The notes under the pieces are model-generated. The model was not told the origin of the DNA, did not search any database, and was given only the letters and a program-made list of their open reading frames with translations. Of a DNA stretch of 28,843 bases, positions 884-15,351 are shown in pieces. Positions within the stretch are counted from its first letter, which is position 1; every line of letters starts with the position of its first letter. The position numbers were made by a program, and so were the translations under genes. The stretch is from Pseudomonadota bacterium (GTDB lineage: Bacteria; Pseudomonadota; Gammaproteobacteria; Burkholderiales; Burkholderiaceae_C), in NCBI GenBank assembly GCA_039800165.1, contig JBDLRH010000030.1, forward strand, positions 1-28,843, read 5' to 3'.

Positions 884-914
884 CTGCAACGAAGCTCGCT
901 CGATCCAATAAAAA

Positions 915-938
915 AGCCAGCGCGAACGCTGGCTTTTT
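915..938. terminator. Bidirectional intrinsic terminator between convergent genes
   Basis: The stem-loop is GCCAGCG-CGAA-CGCTGGC (915-932). It is flanked by A5 (910-914) and T6 (933-938), so it reads as hairpin plus U-tract on either strand. Confidence 0.8.
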
Positions 939-945
939 TGTGTGC

Positions 946-964
946 GTGTCGTGTTAAACGACAC
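946..964. repeat. Copy a of a conserved palindrome (GTGTCGT-GTTAA-ACGACAC)
   Basis: Perfect 7-bp stem that overlaps the stop codon of the AAA+ gene. It has the same arms as the copies at 3754-3772 and 4484-4504. Confidence 0.75.
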
Positions 965-1637
965 CTTCCCCTTGGGGTGCTCGTCGCACCTGCAACACGA
1001 TGCTCACCATGGCATCGAGGATTCCTCTGGCTGAACCATGGCATGCGTCAATCACACTGACAAGGGTGCTGTCATCGATGCCACCAACGCCTGCGTCGCT
1101 GAGGATGCGACGACACAGCGGCAGCCAACGCTTGGCTGGCGCTGCATTGAAGGCAATGCAGTGGCAACGATCCAGCACCCCCTGCTCTACTTTGGCGTAG
1201 TGGTTCGTCGTCAGCACGAACACGCAGTTGGGCATGTTCATGGCTGACTTCAACGAAGCCATGGCGTCTTTGGTGAGGTTGTCCACCTCGTCCAAGACAA
1301 AGTAGTGGTACGAGGCAAAGGGAATCACCATCGCCTGCTGCTGAATGCTGCTGACGACGCCACATCCATTGTTGGGAGGTGCCACACGAACATAGCGTGG
1401 CGCAGCAGCGTCACCTGTTCTCGCCTTCTCCATGGCGTCAGGGATCAGTTTGGCAAGGGCACTCTTGCCAGTGCCAGGCACCCCATACAGCAGGATGCCG
1501 CACTTACCCTCACGCATGGGGAAGGGGCGCTCCCCTGACAGCAAGTCGATGACTAACTGCTTGGCAGCGTCGCTTTCGAACACGATGTCGTCCACGCTCT
1601 TGGGCTTGTATTCATTTTCAAAGTCGATTTTTTTCAT
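954..1637 (-). CDS. RFC/clamp-loader-type AAA+ ATPase, short form without a collar domain
   Basis: Motifs present are EYKPKSVDDIVF (RFC box II-like), Walker A GVPGTGKS, Walker B FVLDEVD, sensor-1 LTTN, DRC in the position of the clamp-loader SRC arginine finger, and sensor-2 GSARG. The protein ends about 25 aa after sensor-2. ATG 1637 has AAAGGA 5 nt upstream; ATG 1643 is an alternative start. Confidence 0.85.
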   Translation of the reverse strand: MKKIDFENEYKPKSVDDIVFESDAAKQLVIDLLSGERPFPMREGKCGILLYGVPGTGKSALAKLIPDAMEKARTGDAAAPRYVRVAPPNNGCGVVSSIQQQAMVIPFASYHYFVLDEVDNLTKDAMASLKSAMNMPNCVFVLTTNHYAKVEQGVLDRCHCIAFNAAPAKRWLPLCRRILSDAGVGGIDDSTLVSVIDACHGSARGILDAMVSIVLQVRRAPQGEGVV

Positions 1638-1659
1638 CTTCATCCTTTCAGGAGCAGTG

Positions 1660-1682
1660 GGGTGAGCCACAGGGGCTCACCC
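1660..1682 (-). other. Intercistronic stem-loop between the 290-aa gene and the AAA+ gene
   Basis: GGGTGAGCC (1660-1668) pairs perfectly with GGCTCACCC (1674-1682) around a 5-nt loop. There is no U-tract, so a processing, stability or attenuation role is only a guess. Confidence 0.45.
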
Positions 1683-1690
1683 AGCACCAC

Positions 1691-2563
1691 TTAGGCTGCC
1701 ACCTTCTCCTGCTCCCCCACAGCCTGCTGCGCTGCTGCATCGATTGCAGCCTGCTTGGCATTGCCGTCGTTGGCGGCTTGCTGCTCTTGCTTCTTCGCTT
1801 CAGCGCCAGCCTTCTCGCTAGCGTAGTGGCTCGCCAAGGCAGCAGTCACTGCTGTACCTGAGTTGGTGAAGGTGTGCACAACGACGCTGCCATCGCTTTG
1901 CCAGGTGCCCAGCAGCACCACAGGCTGATCAATATTCCCTGCATCCAAGGCAGCACTGAGCACAGGGCTGGTGACGACACCCAGTCGCTGCTGCCGCAGC
2001 GACTGCTTGCCCATTTCTGCCTTGCTCTTGGGCGTCATCGCGTTAGGGCTCTTCGCCAATCGAATCTCCTCCACGCCCCCATTGCTGCGAATGAAGTCAG
2101 GGATTTGCTCAACAGCGAGTTTCTGGCTCAAGGCTGTTCGCAGCACGATGCCGTAAGCACTGACGCGACGGCGATCAGCACCAAACACGCACTTGACGAT
2201 TTTCACAATCGTGTGCGAACTGGCGCTGAACGTGTAGCCCTTCGACTCGATGTACTCGTTCAAGCCCTCACGCAGGAGTTTTGCGTTGTTGCCGTCGTCG
2301 CTAAGTTGTTGGTACAGCCCATAGCACTTAGCAAGCAGCGCATAGAGTTGCTCGTTGCTGGTGCGATAGGCGTTGTTGAACCAAGCGTCCTTCTCTGCAA
2401 TCAGTTCTTCGATTAGCACGCCTGCTGTGCGCTTGGTAGCACTCAGCACAGCGCCAGATTCATCACGAACTGTGACGTTGGAGGCGCTGAAGGTGTCGTT
2501 TTCCACGACGCCATTAGCAGCAGCAGATTTGAACGAGGGGGCGAAAGTGGTAGTAGTTTCCAT
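1691..2563 (-). CDS. Hypothetical protein (290 aa) with an Ala/Gln/Lys-rich C-terminal tail, first gene of the AAA+ operon
   Basis: ATG at 2563 (METTTTF...) has GGAGA 5 nt upstream; the track's longer start lacks a Shine-Dalgarno sequence. The stop lies 53 nt upstream of the AAA+ start. No family recognised. The tail reads ...AGAEAKKQEQQAANDGNAKQAAIDAAAQQAVGEQEKVAA. Confidence 0.7.
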   Translation of the reverse strand: METTTTFAPSFKSAAANGVVENDTFSASNVTVRDESGAVLSATKRTAGVLIEELIAEKDAWFNNAYRTSNEQLYALLAKCYGLYQQLSDDGNNAKLLREGLNEYIESKGYTFSASSHTIVKIVKCVFGADRRRVSAYGIVLRTALSQKLAVEQIPDFIRSNGGVEEIRLAKSPNAMTPKSKAEMGKQSLRQQRLGVVTSPVLSAALDAGNIDQPVVLLGTWQSDGSVVVHTFTNSGTAVTAALASHYASEKAGAEAKKQEQQAANDGNAKQAAIDAAAQQAVGEQEKVAA

Positions 2564-2772
2564 GATTTCTCCTATTAAGAATGGAAGTGACGACTCGCTT
2601 ACCAAAGCCCAGTCGCCATCGACTTGACGCTGACTTGCACCATTGCCTGCCATTCGTTTCGTCGATGTGTGTATAGTGCTGGATTAGCCAGTAAGTGTGT
2701 TTTCACGCATACAATGTGCTAATTTCAGGAAACCAGCCCCCAAGTTCCAGCCAGGAACATGTGCTCAAGGGC

Positions 2773-3753
2773 ATGCCCAGGCTGCGCTACAGGCGCCCTG
2801 AGGACTCCTTGGCAGACGCCAGAACCAGCCTGCGCCGCTGGTGGTGGGAGTTCCTTCGCCTCAGCAAGGACTACTGGCTGGTGTGCCAGACATCCAAGGG
2901 CAAGCCCATGGCAGCCACTGAAAGCCAAGAACTGCGCAGGATTTATCGCGCCTTTGGCGACATCTATGCCTGCACCTTTGACGAGTGGTGGCTGGACAGG
3001 GGCTACAGGCTGTTCAGCGAAGTGGAGAAGTTCCCCAAAGTCCAAGAAGTGCCCAGGCGCCCCAATGAGCGTGAGCGGCAGGTGCCAGCGCCAGACAAGA
3101 TTTGGGTGGAAGTGCCCCTGAAACTCAGCAAGCGCACGATTCAGAAGCAACTGGGCAAACTGCTGGAGAAGCACGCCAGCGAAAGGCTGGCGAGGCGCAC
3201 AGAACTCACCAGCGCAGAGTTCAAGATCAACTCAGTGCCCTTTGGCACGCACACGCTGCACAAGGTGCATGACTTGCACGCCCTGCACAGGGAACTGATT
3301 GAAAAGCCCAAGTGGCTGAAGAAGCATCAGCCTGACAAACTTGACGGCGCCGCCAAGGCTGACTTGTTCCGCATTGGCAAACTGCTGCACATCAGCATCA
3401 GCAACGAGTCCTTGCTGGTGGAGCCAAGCGAAGCGCACAAGCGTATCAATCGTATGCGTGTTGCTGTGAGCAGAACGCTCAAGCGCAGCCACCAACTCAT
3501 CGCCAATGTGGAGCGTGGAATCTTCCCCAGTTATGCACCAGTGGGCGACACAGAAGTGCGCTTCACGCCACGCCAACTGGCACGCCACAAAGAACTGGAA
3601 AGCCAGTGGTGGGAACTGAACCTGATTTCAGAGTTGAGTGCTGAAAAACTCAACGCCGTCAAGCGCATCCACTACGAAGAGCCAGAGCGCACACGCCAGA
3701 ACGATCTCATGCTGGACAGGCGCGAGCGAGTCGTGATCATTCGCGATGCATGA
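2773..3753 (+). CDS. Hypothetical basic protein (about 327 aa) with the Trp-rich N-terminal motif RRWWWEFLRLSKDYW
   Basis: Long ORF with island-like codon usage, divergent from the AAA+ operon. The start is uncertain: ATG 2773, GTG 2761 (AGGA 4 nt upstream) or the track's GTG 2695. Stop is TGA 3751-3753, immediately followed by palindrome copy b. Confidence 0.7.
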   Translation: MPRLRYRRPEDSLADARTSLRRWWWEFLRLSKDYWLVCQTSKGKPMAATESQELRRIYRAFGDIYACTFDEWWLDRGYRLFSEVEKFPKVQEVPRRPNERERQVPAPDKIWVEVPLKLSKRTIQKQLGKLLEKHASERLARRTELTSAEFKINSVPFGTHTLHKVHDLHALHRELIEKPKWLKKHQPDKLDGAAKADLFRIGKLLHISISNESLLVEPSEAHKRINRMRVAVSRTLKRSHQLIANVERGIFPSYAPVGDTEVRFTPRQLARHKELESQWWELNLISELSAEKLNAVKRIHYEEPERTRQNDLMLDRRERVVIIRDA

Positions 3754-3772
3754 GTGTCGTGCAACACGACAC
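3754..3772. repeat. Copy b of the conserved palindrome (GTGTCGTG-CAA-CACGACAC)
   Basis: Perfect 8-bp stem between the convergent stops of the 327-aa gene (3753) and the recombinase gene (3786). Confidence 0.8.
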
Positions 3773-3785
3773 CCCATGTCGCCCT

Positions 3786-4352
3786 TCAGATCAGTTCCAC
3801 TGCGTTGCGCTTCATGTCGTCGTTGACATCAATGTATTTCTGCGTGACTGCGATGCTGCGATGCCCTGCAAGGCTTGCAAGCACACGCACCCCAATACCC
3901 TTACTCGCCAGCGTGGTGATGAAGGATCTGCGCCCTGAGTGGCTGCTGGCGCCTTCAATGCCTGCCTTGCGATAGAGCCAGAAGAAGTGCTGCGTCAGCA
4001 CATTAGCTGTGAAGGGCTTGCCCCCTGCAGTCATGAACAGGGGTAAGTTGCGATCGCGAACGCTGCGGCTGTCCACGTAGTGCTGCAACTCATCACGCAG
4101 TTTTTGGGGCAAGAACACAGTTCTGGCATAACTGCCCTTGGTTTGTGATGCGTCCAGGCGCACTTCTGCCTTGACTCTGCCGCTGCCATCAACAACATCT
4201 TCCACGCGAAGTGCTGCGATCTCCCCTACTCGCATGCCTGCCCAAAAACTCATCAGGATGATCAGGCGATTTCGCAGCGCATACCTGCGGCTGCTGACGT
4301 AGCGCAGCACAGCGTCTAACTCTGCTGGGGTGAAGGTTTTGGCTTGTCCCAC
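3786..4352 (-). CDS. Short tyrosine recombinase (188-198 aa), catalytic domain only
   Basis: Catalytic residues are all present: Arg I in WAGMRVGE, Lys in QTKGSYARTV, H-x-x-R in HSGRRSF, His in AGHRSI and Tyr in TQKYI. Only about 35-45 aa precede Arg I, so there is no SAM-like core-binding domain. AAGGAG lies 7 nt upstream of GTG 4352; the track start at 4382 is also GTG. Confidence 0.9.
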   Translation of the reverse strand: MGQAKTFTPAELDAVLRYVSSRRYALRNRLIILMSFWAGMRVGEIAALRVEDVVDGSGRVKAEVRLDASQTKGSYARTVFLPQKLRDELQHYVDSRSVRDRNLPLFMTAGGKPFTANVLTQHFFWLYRKAGIEGASSHSGRRSFITTLASKGIGVRVLASLAGHRSIAVTQKYIDVNDDMKRNAVELI

Positions 4353-4483
4353 TTGCTTGCTCCTTGCGTAATAAAAGCGCACAACAAGTGTGTTTTCTTA
4401 GACGCAGAAGAGCAACCGAAAAGACGGCGCTGAAATCTTCAATGAAATCAACGATGCCAAAGAAAACAGCGATTTTCTTTGGT

Positions 4484-4504
4484 GGTGTCGTGTCTCACGA
4501 CACC
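4484..4504. repeat. Copy c of the conserved palindrome (GGTGTCGTG-TCT-CACGACACC)
   Basis: Perfect 9-bp stem. It lies 10 nt downstream of the stop of ORF 4515-4970 and about 130 nt upstream of the recombinase start. The 16 nt to its right match 12 of 16 positions with the flank of copy b. Confidence 0.8.
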
Positions 4505-4514
4505 CTACAGCGCC

Positions 4515-4970
4515 CTACAAGCGCACAGCGCCCCCTGTCGCTACCCACCCCTGCAGAACCCAGAAAAATGCGTGTAAGACGCTAAAAACTGGGCGTTCGT
4601 ATAAATAACTTATACAAACAAGATCAAGGTTTCTCGCCGATTGAATTGAGATGCTAAGCCCGTTCTGATGTGAGACGGTAAAGTAGGCGCTGCTTGTTGC
4701 GTCGGGGGATTGCACTACCCTGCGGCTAGCAGGATGCATTAAACGACTCCATGACTGGAATAACGTTTGCAATAACTTGGATGGGTAGAAATGAGCCACG
4801 AACGGCTCAATCAAAGTGAGTGGGATGCCACGCTTGCCCAGTGCAAGTACCCCACAAAGCACAGACGATGCTGCTGCATAGGCTGTCTGTGCTTGCGTAA
4901 GGACACGCACGTCAAAGGATGATCGCAAAACCTGCCTTTCCAGTTCAGTCTGGTTGTGCCTATGCAGCAT
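4515..4970 (-). CDS. Possible hypothetical protein (151 aa), weak call
   Basis: The internal ATG at 4970 has GAGGG 5 nt upstream, and the stop is followed by palindrome copy c. Against this, the 3' third runs through AT-rich DNA with a GTATAA-N5-TTATAC inverted repeat (4599-4615) that looks regulatory, and the composition is odd. Confidence 0.3.
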   Translation of the reverse strand: MLHRHNQTELERQVLRSSFDVRVLTQAQTAYAAASSVLCGVLALGKRGIPLTLIEPFVAHFYPSKLLQTLFQSWSRLMHPASRRVVQSPDATSSAYFTVSHQNGLSISIQSARNLDLVCISYLYERPVFSVLHAFFWVLQGWVATGGAVRL

Positions 4971-5177
4971 GGAAACCCTCAGTGAATGTCGCCGCGCCTG
5001 CGAGGCGTGGCACATGGCTTCCTAGTGAATGACATCACTGAGTGATCCACCACACATCTCAGTTCTTGGTTTCTTCAATCAAGAAGAAGAAAAGCGCGAT
5101 GAAGATTTGCTCGAAGGCAAATCGAATCGCAGTTCGCGATGAGCGAACTTGAACAACACCTACAAGGGAGACAACAA

Positions 5178-5540
5178 ATGAGTTTTACAAGACAACTATT
5201 CGATCTGACTGCCATGGCTTTGCCCAACATCACAGCCAGAACCTTCAGCAGGTACTGCGGCAAGAGCGAGGGCTACTACGGCAGCATCAGCGCACAGAAC
5301 CTGGACATCTCCACCAACAGCCTGCTGTACCTGTCAGAAGTGCTTGAGCACAAGCGGGCAACCAGCCCCAATCGCTACATCACAGAACTGCAGGACATGA
5401 TCGCCAAGGAAGTGGCACGACGCATGAATACCTTGGCCACAGAGAACTTGGCGGTTCGCAAGATGATCATTCGCGCAGTGGCACATGCCTACGTGCAGCG
5501 CACAGACGAATACTCTGCGCCACCCATCGTGATCGCTTGA
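5178..5540 (+). CDS. Hypothetical protein (120 aa)
   Basis: AAGGGAGA lies 6-7 nt upstream of ATG 5178 (MSFTRQLFDL...). The coding frame is clean. No family confidently recognised. Confidence 0.65.
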   Translation: MSFTRQLFDLTAMALPNITARTFSRYCGKSEGYYGSISAQNLDISTNSLLYLSEVLEHKRATSPNRYITELQDMIAKEVARRMNTLATENLAVRKMIIRAVAHAYVQRTDEYSAPPIVIA

Positions 5541-5698: not shown

Positions 5699-5869
5699 GC
5701 CCTCGTCGTCGCAGCACCAAAGAATTCGCCAGGATCGCGCATCGACTGCTTGTTGCGCTAGCCAACGCCCCTAAGAGTCCATTCAATTCGAACGGCTTCA
5801 GGTTGCTCTTCCACGCTGGGTGACTACAGACTTACCTGTGCTCACTCAACACATGGAAAGGACGAGCAC

Positions 5870-6310
5870 ATGGCTACCCTGGCAAATCTCAAACTCAGCG
5901 CAGCAGTCAAGCCCACGCACATCCCCGCTGTGCAGGTACGTCGCGACAAACTGGCAAAGCGACTGTGGGAACAAGCAGAACTAGCGCGAGCGCAGCAAGC
6001 AGGCACGCAGTTCGCACCCACGCGATTTCGAACCGTCGTGGAACACGCCACTGGTGTGCGCCGTCAAGTCGAGCAGCCCAAGCGAATCAAGCCCTGGTGG
6101 TTCACCACTGACGCAGGCAAGTTGGCGCTGCATGTGCGCTATGGCAGCAAAGTGCTGGAACTAGCCAAGGGCAAGTTCGCAGTGGAAGTTGCCAGCGACA
6201 AGGACTTGGTGCCCACGCTGGATGCCATCAAGGCTGCTGTGTTGGCTGGTGAGTTAGATGCTGCCATCGACACAGCGTCCACAAAACTTCGCGCTGCGTT
6301 TAACAAGTGA
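5870..6310 (+). CDS. Hypothetical protein (146 aa)
   Basis: GGAAAGGA lies upstream of ATG 5870. The frame is clean and contains ...KRIKPWWFTTDAGKLALHVRYGSKVLELAKGKFAVEV.... It is the last gene before the tRNA fragment. Confidence 0.7.
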   Translation: MATLANLKLSAAVKPTHIPAVQVRRDKLAKRLWEQAELARAQQAGTQFAPTRFRTVVEHATGVRRQVEQPKRIKPWWFTTDAGKLALHVRYGSKVLELAKGKFAVEVASDKDLVPTLDAIKAAVLAGELDAAIDTASTKLRAAFNK

Positions 6311-6465: not shown

Positions 6466-6510
6466 ATCATAATCCACAGGTCCGCGGTTCGAATCCGTGA
6501 AGCGCCACCA
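6466..6510 (+). tRNA. Orphan 3' fragment of a tRNA gene (att-site remnant), not a functional tRNA
   Basis: Readable elements are an anticodon-loop-like ATCATAA, stem strand TCCAC, variable loop AGGTC, T-arm CGCGG-TTCGAAT-CCGTG, acceptor 3' strand AAGCGCC, discriminator A and an encoded CCA. The complementary 5' acceptor strand GGCGCTT, the D-arm and the anticodon-stem 5' strand are all absent upstream. Confidence 0.75.
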
Positions 6511-6525
6511 AAAAATCCCTTTGCC

Positions 6526-6612: not shown

Positions 6613-7752
6613 ATGATGCAGCTACGCTTCACCTTCGCCGCTTTGACCTTGCTGGCTCTCCCACTAGCCACAAGAGCAACCGAGATGCCGTATGGTTGGA
6701 ACGTTACCAACGGATTCCGAAGCCACGCTCGCGTTGCCTACGTCAGCCCACCTTCCGAGCCCGGTCAGGTAGCGCTGCCAACAGGCACCTCCAGTCCAGA
6801 AGCCAAGCGGCTACTTGACGACCTGTTCAAGCGCAACAACACGAAAGCGCTGCTGGTTGCGCAAGACGGGCAACTTCTCTATGAACGCTATAGCTTTGGC
6901 GTAGGGCGTCGCAACACCCCGCTGGGCTACTCAATGTCGAAGAGTCTTACAGCGCTGGCAGTAGGACATGCAGTTTGCGATGGTCACATCGCCAGCGTCG
7001 ATGACGTGATGAAAAAGTATGTTCCGGCACTCGCAGGCACCGCATGGGGAGAGGCAACGGTACGCGACATATTGAAGATGTCCAGTGGAGCCTACAGAAC
7101 CACTATGCAGTACAACGGCCACAAGTACCGAGAGTTTGAGCAGAGCATCGGTGCGGCTGTAGCCGAAGGGCGAATGAATACCGATTTCCTTGAATTGATG
7201 AAGCAAGCGGACGAAAAGGAGTTTCCTCCAGGCTCCGTCTTCAACTACAACAATTTCGACACGGTCGCGCTCGGCTTACTCGTTCAGTCTGCGTCCGGCA
7301 TGCCTTTTCCCGCGTACTTCGAGCGTTCCGTTTGGAAGTCTGCAGGTGCGGAGACGCGAGGGGCATGGTTCATGACGAACAAGGGCCAGACATCGACGTA
7401 TCAAGGATTTAGCGCATCACCTCATGACTGGATACGTATCGGCATGATGGTCTTGCGCGACCTCCGCGATCAAGACAAATGCATCGGCAAGTTCTTGAAG
7501 GATGCGACGTCAAGTCAGGCATCGTCTTGGGGTCCGGCATCCTCGTACGGATATCAAATCTGGGTACGCTGCGCATCCCAGACTGACTTTTGCTTCGTTG
7601 GCTTCGGTGGGCAGTACCTGCTTTTCAATGTTGCGACAAACACAGTTCTCTACCACCACGCTACAACGTTCTCATCTATCGTGTGGGGAACTCCTCGCGT
7701 GATGGACGAGTTGATCCCGCATCTCTCCAGCAGCACGAAGCCACGGCAATAG
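6613..7752 (+). CDS. Secreted serine hydrolase of the beta-lactamase / penicillin-binding-protein fold family
   Basis: It has an N-terminal signal peptide (MMQLRFTFAALTLLALPLATRA) and an S-x-x-K active-site motif (YSMSKSLTA) at the usual position. At 379 aa the length is typical of the family. Confidence 0.8.
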   Translation: MMQLRFTFAALTLLALPLATRATEMPYGWNVTNGFRSHARVAYVSPPSEPGQVALPTGTSSPEAKRLLDDLFKRNNTKALLVAQDGQLLYERYSFGVGRRNTPLGYSMSKSLTALAVGHAVCDGHIASVDDVMKKYVPALAGTAWGEATVRDILKMSSGAYRTTMQYNGHKYREFEQSIGAAVAEGRMNTDFLELMKQADEKEFPPGSVFNYNNFDTVALGLLVQSASGMPFPAYFERSVWKSAGAETRGAWFMTNKGQTSTYQGFSASPHDWIRIGMMVLRDLRDQDKCIGKFLKDATSSQASSWGPASSYGYQIWVRCASQTDFCFVGFGGQYLLFNVATNTVLYHHATTFSSIVWGTPRVMDELIPHLSSSTKPRQ

Positions 7753-15177: not shown

Positions 15178-15351
15178 GATGAACAACCGTTGTGGGGCCC
15201 AGGCCCGACAGGGCTGGGCGGGTGAAGAACTGCAGGGACGCCGATTATGAATCGCGCGCGTCGCCCACTTGACCGCATCGGGGTTTCTCCGGGGACGGCC
15301 AGCGCAGTCCTTCTGCATCATGCAGCGGCAGTCATCACCACAGGAGCCAGC

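Follow-up and report, generated by a model that had tools for sequence, protein, structure and literature searches.

In IncP-1 plasmids, the OB operators of KorB, a protein of the ParB family, are short dyads repeated across the element, through which the element-encoded protein co-ordinates backbone expression. In PAISt of Streptomyces turgidiscabies, internal palindromic copies of the attachment (att) site are associated with modular excision, and the 8-bp palindrome is the integrase's own att site (PMC4057263). Here, we describe a short palindrome that recurs in an integrated island within a stretch of 28,843 nucleotides, hereafter the window (contig JBDLRH010000030.1, positions 1 to 28,843, of assembly GCA_039800165.1, from a Pseudomonadota bacterium of the lineage Burkholderiaceae_C). 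Judged from sequence comparison, its copies are local members of a conserved, co-evolving set of dyads that delimits the modules of a widespread and undescribed island family. They are not repetitive extragenic palindromic (REP) elements and not simple terminators, and they are probably not the sites of the short tyrosine recombinase encoded in the island. We favour, with a probability of about one half, the reading that the dyads are operator or boundary sites for an island-encoded protein, probably a protein here called p291, and that they are also junctions of module exchange.

The original prediction claimed three palindromes in the window, at 946-964, 3754-3772 and 4484-4504, and both the coordinates and the 7-, 8- and 9-bp stems are as it gave them. 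These copies, a, b and c of that account, are numbered P1, P3 and P4 here, and P2 is an added fourth copy, weaker than the others, which the earlier count missed although it lies at 2492-2512, within its own range (Table 1). P3 is placed between the convergent stops of the genes for a 352-aa protein and the short recombinase, P4 lies ~100 bp upstream of the short recombinase start within a conserved non-coding stretch, and P2 codes for the peptide VVENDT in the 5′ coding region of p291. The 7-bp centres of the four copies are all different (TGTTAAA, TTTTCCA, TGCAACA and TGTCTCA for P1 to P4), and the palindrome pattern had 0 matches in 100 dinucleotide-preserving shuffles of the window. Two smaller observations of the earlier account have fared differently. 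The right flanks of copies b and c are indeed alike, with a 77% match over 35 nt, and this similarity is not general among related islands. ACAGCGCCC does recur, at 4507 and 4525, but 25 of the 100 shuffles also contained it at least twice. Rfam holds no family for the palindromes, and gave only sub-threshold chance matches near the neighbouring terminator (884-1000).

When all 176 contigs of the assembly (3.06 Mb, 68% G+C) were scanned, the set grew by a fifth copy, which was found with a 6-bp-stem pattern on contig C24, ~50 nt into the frame of an integrase gene and 200 bp from an intact tRNA-Met gene, and which encodes TVVSHDS. In another integrase clade, a different palindrome, AACAGCGT-TAAAT-ACGCTGTT, occupies the spot matching this copy. 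The rest of the genome contains a single unrelated chance match to the 7-bp-stem pattern, at C95:8888, so that the genome has five copies in total, every one in the island. Five other whole genomes together gave 41 matches, all in island clusters save 4 isolated outliers, compared with 1-2 matches per genome for the reversed pattern used as a control. This confinement, here and in the five other genomes, bears out the earlier position that the copies are not ordinary REPs. A family of REPs or bacterial interspersed mosaic elements, which was considered and rejected, would be expected to show tens to hundreds of scattered extragenic copies rather than five in one island.

The 352-aa protein is the hallmark of the island family, and has 187 relatives in a large protein collection, all of them without a name. 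Relatives were compared on the contigs of three of them, at 17 loci from species genomes and at 80 loci from metagenomes; individual loci are cited below by L numbers. The named hosts are Limnohabitans, Polynucleobacter and Zwartia, together with metagenome-assembled genomes of Comamonadaceae, Rhodocyclaceae and Bordetella-like bacteria. Viral contigs contained no relative of the hallmark protein, and plasmids gave just three weak Bradyrhizobium matches. A recurring core comprises an AAA+ ATPase gene, p291, a divergent promoter region, the 352-aa gene, the short recombinase, a non-coding stretch, a gene for a 120-133-aa protein, a DUF6641 gene and an integrase gene (413-465 aa in the related islands), with variable cargo between and beside the core genes.

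Across these ~100 related islands, a dyad of 17-21 bp, RSTGTCG-N7-CGACASY, is present in 2-8 copies per island. The N7 class includes 121 non-redundant GTCG-N7-CGAC sites with the consensus RSTGTCG-TGTAACA-CGACASY, and an N9 class, with 82 non-redundant GTCG-N9-CGAC sites and the consensus TGTCGTGTT-N-AACACGACA, is found in Polynucleobacter-type islands. Each base of the arms is conserved at 90-100%, and in the most frequent forms the palindromy runs on through the centre. The 121 N7 sites have at least 26 different centres, and the centres vary even within one island. Such conservation of the arms together with palindromy through the centre is typical of the target of a dimeric DNA-binding protein, and not of a stem-loop selected for its structure. 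Both the sequence and the positions of the dyad are kept across islands whose hallmark proteins are just 41-77% identical. No description of these palindromes, and no mention of DUF6641, was found in the literature searched.

Six positions recur. P1 lies ~10-45 bp from the AAA+ stop and is occupied in many relatives; P2 lies within the first 50-110 nt of the p291 frame, whatever the flavour of the site; P3, between the stops of the 352-aa gene and the recombinase, is occupied, empty or filled with a cargo insert, depending on the relative. P4 is ~100 bp upstream of the recombinase, P5 is 100-140 bp upstream of DUF6641, or directly past its stop in Polynucleobacter-type islands, and P6 is ~35 bp past the integrase stop in many islands. 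The island studied here has P1 to P4 in the window and the copy within the integrase gene. Each position retains its own outer-base flavour across islands, and the polarity of type I sites relative to neighbouring genes is not consistent. Tandem sites also occur, with 2-4 copies at 45-50-bp spacing and unrelated spacers (L061:219-480 and 3360-3480; L067:2293-2360 and 5768-5890; L044:4064-4130; L068:5418-5485).

The sites also change in concert. In L010 and L037, those at P2, P3 and P5 read AGCGTCG...CGACGCT, a form that L003 has at P3. Moreover, a divergent clade with hallmark proteins 37-52% identical (L013, L073-76, L105, L017, L019, L020 and L024) carries GCGTCC-nGTWACn-GGACGC at P1, P2 and P3, beside DUF6641 and beside the integrase; type I sites are absent from this clade, or peripheral only (L073, L105). 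The in-frame peptides at P2 are VVxNDT, VVVFDTT in Polynucleobacter-type islands and VQTLDG in the type II clade, and the p291 N-terminus is otherwise poorly conserved. Since P2 stands in the p291 frame in every flavour with differing peptides, it is the DNA and not the peptide that is conserved. Collectively, all sites of one island appear to share one specificity, as a single cognate protein would produce. Separately, single copies of ATCGTCC-CGTTACT-GGACGAT stand just past DUF6641, even in islands without the main sites.

The presence of the sites follows one gene. At 12 loci, an unrelated gene for a protein of 334-339 aa, here called p336, stands upstream of the 352-aa gene in place of the AAA+/p291 pair, and these p336 islands retain the short recombinase, the integrase, the 352-aa gene, the 120-aa gene (p133 in the window) and DUF6641. 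Two or more sites lie within 4 kb of the hallmark gene in 39 of the 48 non-redundant p291 islands but in only 2 of the 10 p336 islands, a difference with a nominal Fisher p of 4e-4 that overstates the evidence because the islands are related to one another. Several independent replacements of p291 by p336 nevertheless underlie the count, given that p336 islands are mixed in among p291 islands when ranked by the identity of the hallmark protein, and that recently swapped pairs exist (L003/L037 at 88% and L049/L059 at 91.5% DNA identity). Among recently swapped p336 islands, L003 still has P3 and L049 a one-mismatch copy of it, and the L034 group of p336 islands has none. Between conserved flanks, the P4 of close p291-type relatives shows 0-1 mismatch, and in p336 islands a relic with 3-6 mismatches is left. 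In addition, p291 islands without the AAA+ gene still have sites (L080-82, L089, L092 and L100). On these comparisons, p291 appears to be the sole core gene whose presence tracks the sites, from which we infer DNA binding by p291.

The p291 family has at least 638 relatives. The protein has no Pfam, NCBIfam or PHROG match, the p291 alignment, used as a profile, retrieved no PDB sequence, and its AlphaFold model (predicted local distance difference test score, pLDDT, 81) has no significant match in the PDB or in a viral-structure library. Its best-conserved motif, VKCVFGxDRRRVSAYSxALRxAL, lies on two adjacent helices of the confident model. The 352-aa protein is likewise without a Pfam match, and its model (pLDDT 75) is without a significant PDB fold match; going by the models, the two proteins may be new folds.

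In the reading that we favour, the dyad would be read as double-stranded DNA by a dimeric island-encoded protein, for which the best candidate is p291, encoded beside the clamp-loader-like AAA+ ATPase. Once occupied, the sites would serve as operators or roadblocks through which transcription of the island modules is co-ordinated and insulated, in keeping with their placement in the first 50-110 nt of the p291 and integrase frames, ~100-140 bp upstream of the short-recombinase and DUF6641 genes, and past the AAA+ and 352-aa stops. The variable centres are as might be expected for operator centres that are not contacted by the protein. Since every module is flanked by sites, and these are conserved even where the islands have otherwise diverged, they would also be exchange points for modules and cargo. 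Among the three roles that the original prediction proposed, that of operators for an island regulator gives the best fit to an island-confined, sequence-conserved dyad in multiple copies.

A role at the RNA level, in which the copies form 3′ stem-loops that terminate or stabilise transcripts in a terminator-like or REP-like manner, is suggested by the three window copies at or just past stop codons and by hairpins that fold at -9.5 to -17 kcal/mol (z-scores ~-2 to -3). In Polynucleobacter-type islands, the copy past the AAA+ gene has an 11-15-bp stem followed by T5-T7, and this extended P1 is, by its sequence, probably a real intrinsic terminator for the AAA+ gene; at least six T within the next 10 nt are found in 7 of 27 copies past that gene. 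However, the window copies are all without a U-tract, as had been noted earlier, and a separate canonical terminator with U6 stands 9 nt past copy a on the minus-strand transcript, also in line with the earlier account. This terminator can work in both directions because it is flanked by A6 and T6, and the fold of 900-975 reaches -29.7 kcal/mol with a z-score of -5.0. The arm sequence is kept over large divergence, with no compensatory drift save the concerted flavour switches, and some sites lie in 5′ coding regions or upstream of genes. Furthermore, the site is absent between many convergent gene pairs with just 7-19 bp between their stops, and sites decay on loss of p291 though the flanking genes stay. 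The plain terminator reading is therefore incomplete, as the original prediction held, in that the sequence and not just the structure is conserved and copies stand inside coding regions and upstream of genes. We consider an RNA-level function of the set as a whole very improbable, and some copies may have been co-opted as terminators.

Comparison of islands at the DNA level brings in a different kind of evidence. The analysis of homology breakpoints was limited to high-scoring segment pairs of at least 80% identity, the version with all pairs being too noisy because such pairs end where similarity decays. Of 342 unique internal breakpoints, 64 fall within 20 bp of a site, compared with 2.3% expected and a maximum of 5.6% in 500 randomisations. 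Between L015 and L021, the core is 82.5% and the integrase module 95.4% identical, and the switch falls at a site. Inserts with a site on either side are seen when occupied and empty islands are aligned: 1.1 kb in L015 relative to the empty L016, 2.6 kb in L099 relative to the empty L022, and a 0.9-kb dienelactone-hydrolase gene at P3 in L006 and L007, where the window and L003 are empty. A similar hydrolase insert is present at P3 in L050, L070 and L093. L007 has a hybrid site, GTGTCG-TTTTTAG-CGACGC, in which the left arm and flank are L006-like and the spacer, right arm and flank are L003-like. The order of the core modules differs between clades and is always delimited by sites. The insert junctions lie near sites and not exactly within them, and site-less islands also show indels.

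These observations could be explained if the palindromes were crossover sites of an island tyrosine recombinase, either the 198-aa enzyme or the ~450-aa integrase, serving modular excision, inversion or cassette capture. The geometry fits, since both flavours have 6-7-bp inverted arms round a 7-bp spacer; the recombinase gene stands between copies b and c, which form direct repeats; the bracketed inserts, the hybrid site and the concentration of breakpoints are in agreement with it, as is the site just past the integrase stop in many islands; and internal palindromic att copies can allow modular excision in PAISt (PMC4057263). On the other hand, the centres differ throughout the window and vary family-wide, and the sites are lost or decayed in p336 islands that keep both recombinases. 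Classical tyrosine recombinases such as lambda Int, Cre, Flp and XerCD require identical overlap regions. The att site of the integrase is the 3′ end of tRNA-Met, and the short recombinase has a conserved lox-like candidate site of its own. P2 and the integrase copy lie within reading frames, the position-specific outer bases argue against frequent exchange between positions, and tandem sites 45-50 bp apart are hard to fit as cassette junctions. That junctions are near and not in the sites, with indels in site-less islands too, also counts against this explanation. For the integrase in particular, near-identical enzymes serve a site-rich and a site-less island in one genome, and with its att at the tRNA-Met end it was rejected as the sites' enzyme. 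The recombinase-site role raised in the original prediction is thus weakened by the differing centres and by site loss despite the recombinases, but keeps a footing in the cargo inserts and breakpoints that fall at sites; we regard it as unlikely.

The lox-like dyad of the short recombinase (Table 1) has the family form GTTCGTATAA-ATAAS-TTATACGAAC and a constant position 214-268 bp upstream in 13 relatives, including palindrome-less islands, and may serve the short recombinase as its target or act in the control of the recombinase gene. The second hairpin, directly abutting P4, is kept in relatives with the downstream motif CCCTACAAGCG, even where the intervening palindrome has decayed.

Alternatively, the dyads might be junctions of a new cassette-exchange system, an integron-like platform run by the p291/AAA+ module and possibly the 352-aa protein. 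The association of the sites with p291, combined with the junction evidence, is what such a system would leave, and module order varies by clade while always being delimited by sites. AAA+ ATPases also partner the transposases of IS21, Tn7 and Mu. Arrays in Limnohabitans are also suggestive, being composed of a site, a 100-nt conserved element and cargo units. One Limnohabitans genome has two clusters of 7-9 sites, and the cluster on its contig 1 has eight same-orientation sites, each in a 125-nt repeated element, between cargo blocks. The element of ~125 nt, ...CTGCGTAnAAATCGTTGAGTCAGGTTTnnTTTCnGCGGGnCTACCGTGCTCGTGGCTTGATGTGGAGATCAGG-TGTCGTTTTACACGACA-GTTGGTGG, ends in the palindrome (L027:4277-18500 and L028, Limnohabitans sp. 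MMS-10A-178) and has at least 11 same-orientation copies between cargo blocks, in this genome only among the compared loci. Consensus folding of the array element revealed no conserved structure beyond the dyad stem, Rfam has no family for it, and a promoter scan of the array elements found no consistent sigma-70 promoter.

Against a new exchange system, searches with p291 and the 352-aa protein revealed neither a fold nor a motif of a nuclease, recombinase or transposase, the 125-nt element is without a conserved fold beyond its palindrome stem, and the system is deduced from comparative mosaics that homologous recombination at conserved anchors could yield as well. Indeed, conserved dyads of 17-21 bp at module borders could be anchors or breakage points for ordinary recombination. 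We therefore hold a p291/AAA+ cassette system to be decidedly unlikely. The broader proposal, that the dyads are junctions of a hitherto undescribed exchange platform in tRNA-targeting islands of abundant freshwater bacteria, run by the p291/AAA+ (and 352-aa) proteins and not by a known recombinase, is quite unlikely; on that proposal, the units bounded by sites, whether of core or of cargo genes, would be acquired, lost and reordered, even in frame within p291. Taking both kinds of recombination together, it is doubtful that the dyads are true recombination sites.

Several points weigh against the operator or boundary reading. The eightfold enrichment of breakpoints within 20 bp of sites, the cargo inserts bracketed by sites and the Limnohabitans array of eight same-orientation sites are each explained only indirectly by an operator model. 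The 6-7-bp arms, the 7-bp spacer and the GTWAC-like centre also fit the core site of a tyrosine recombinase. The copies at 3′ ends, P1 and P3, are in odd places for operators, and the Polynucleobacter-type P1, with its extended stem and T-run, resembles an intrinsic terminator. p291 is without a recognisable DNA-binding domain, its best fold match being a TetR protein at a probability of 0.18, and its association with the sites rests on non-independent, related islands, with one site inside p291 itself.

The features of the island in this genome are collected in Table 1.

Table 1. Palindromes, genes and other features of the island. Positions refer to the window unless contig C24 is named.
Feature	Position	Strand	Size	Sequence, match or remark
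Intrinsic terminator	907..932	minus		GCCAGCG-UUCG-CGCUGGC + U6; downstream of P1 on the AAA+ transcript
P1 (copy a)	946..964		7-bp stem	GTGTCGT-GTTAA-ACGACAC; as dyad GTGTCG-TGTTAAA-CGACAC; overlaps AAA+ gene stop codon
Clamp-loader-like AAA+ ATPase	954..1670	minus	238 aa	without collar domain; PF00004; phrog_168 at 6.6e-21
p291	1691..2563	minus	290 aa	uncharacterised family
P2	2492..2512			GGTGTCGT-TTTCC-ACGACGCC; one arm mismatch (repeat search); 51-71 nt inside p291 frame
352-aa protein	2695..3753	plus	352 aa	basic, Trp-rich; motif RWWWEFLRLSKDYW; hallmark gene of the island family
P3 (copy b)	3754..3772		8-bp stem	GTGTCGTG-CAA-CACGACAC; as dyad GTGTCG-TGCAACA-CGACAC
Short tyrosine recombinase	3786..4382	minus	198 aa	catalytic domain only; PF00589 at 4.8e-24
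Stretch without conserved reading frame	4383-5138		~750 bp	tblastn matches frame-shifted; no gene called in L003, L006
Second hairpin	4457..4482			CCAAAGAAAA-cagcga-TTTTCTTTGG; directly abuts P4
P4 (copy c)	4484..4504		9-bp stem	GGTGTCGTG-TCT-CACGACACC; as dyad GGTGTCG-TGTCTCA-CGACACC
Lox-like dyad	4595..4619			GTTCGTATAA-ATAAC-TTATACAAAC; 214 bp upstream of short recombinase start
p133	5139-5540	plus	133 aa	
DUF6641 gene	5870..6310	plus		last core gene of the island
tRNA-Met (CAT) 3′ fragment	6466..6512	plus	47 nt	direct repeat of the intact C24 tRNA
Fifth copy	C24:15537-15553			CTGTCGT-TTCAC-ACGACAG (6-bp-stem scan); in 5′ end of integrase gene

The G+C content is 41-59% from position 1 to ~7900 of the window and 63-73% in the remainder. 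Matches of the AAA+ ATPase to the RFC and DnaX N-terminal families are far under the family cut-offs, and the nearest solved structures to the short recombinase are XerC-like proteins and XerA. On contig C24, the intact tRNA-Met gene (~15258-15334) is followed by the integrase gene, of ~440 aa, and then by AT-rich DNA to the contig end; this integrase is 59% identical to the integrases of related islands, and the stretch from tRNA to integrase is C24:15258-16797. With the tRNA and integrase on C24 and the tRNA fragment in the window, the island spans the break between contigs C24 and C30 and is bounded by tRNA-Met repeats. By its sequence, the fragment is taken as the right end (att repeat) of the island.

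The genome holds a second, distantly related island remnant at C37:118662-121066, with genes for an integrase-like protein (26% identity), a DUF6641 protein (36%) and a short recombinase (52%); homologues of p291, the AAA+ protein and the 352-aa protein were not detected in it, and neither flavour of site was seen. In the window, a beta-lactamase-family gene lies just outside the tRNA-Met repeat, at 6613-7752. A related beta-lactamase gene block is present in two other islands (L006:6740-8004 and L055:10923-12188), where the blocks are 93.6% identical and the island cores only ~85%, which suggests a recent transfer of cargo. The ends of this block are not at palindromes.

Islands of this family are common in Limnohabitans, in Polynucleobacter and in metagenomes from lakes, and the relatives of its hallmark protein and of p291 are without a name or a Pfam domain. 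The dyad is a first clue to the function of these proteins, being a specific DNA target that tracks one protein family and marks module borders. If the operator reading is true, it would imply that a DNA-binding family is new and that a control circuit spans the island and extends into the integrase gene. If the dyads are instead junctions, they would give streamlined freshwater bacteria a new route for exchanging cargo, for example hydrolase, beta-lactamase-like and acetyltransferase genes. The motif also offers a cheap marker to find and delimit these islands in metagenomes.

In comparison with known systems, the arrangement resembles that of KorB and OB in that a short dyad is repeated over one mobile element, in promoters as well as inside and between genes, with a reader that is putative here. 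It differs in that the partner is a clamp-loader-like AAA+ ATPase and not a ParA-type one, and in that the element is an integrated island; moreover, no ParB-family match was found for any island protein in Pfam, NCBIfam or PHROGs, and p291 is unlike ParB/KorB by PDB sequence or fold. The P2 and integrase copies are also reminiscent of roadblock operators such as cre/CcpA, PurR at purB and lac O2, in which a dyad stands tens of nucleotides inside a frame. Those operators are part of host regulons and have binding proteins of the LacI family, unlike the island-specific sites described here.

With integron attC sites and the pdif sites of Acinetobacter, which are used by XerC/XerD, the dyads share short inverted repeats that bracket cargo genes and arrays of site plus gene. 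However, the R/L boxes (GTTRRRY) and the extrahelical-base architecture of attC are absent, no IntI-type integrase is present, and integron-integrase models score far under their cut-offs for the island proteins; the 11-6-11 Xer layout of pdif is absent as well, and the sites here also flank and invade core genes. Like PAISt, the island has internal copies of a short palindrome where modules could be excised or exchanged, whereas its att is the tRNA-Met end and its sites do not track recombinases. The text of the tycheposon preprint (bioRxiv 10.1101/2020.12.28.424599) has no "palindrome" or "hairpin" and one "inverted repeat". By its layout, the island is nonetheless tycheposon-like (bioRxiv 10.1101/2020.12.28.424599; PMC10872708), as far as can be judged from sequence, in that it is inserted at a tRNA-Met gene, has its integrase and a small conserved module at opposite ends and holds variable cargo, with tandem accretion as a further shared feature.

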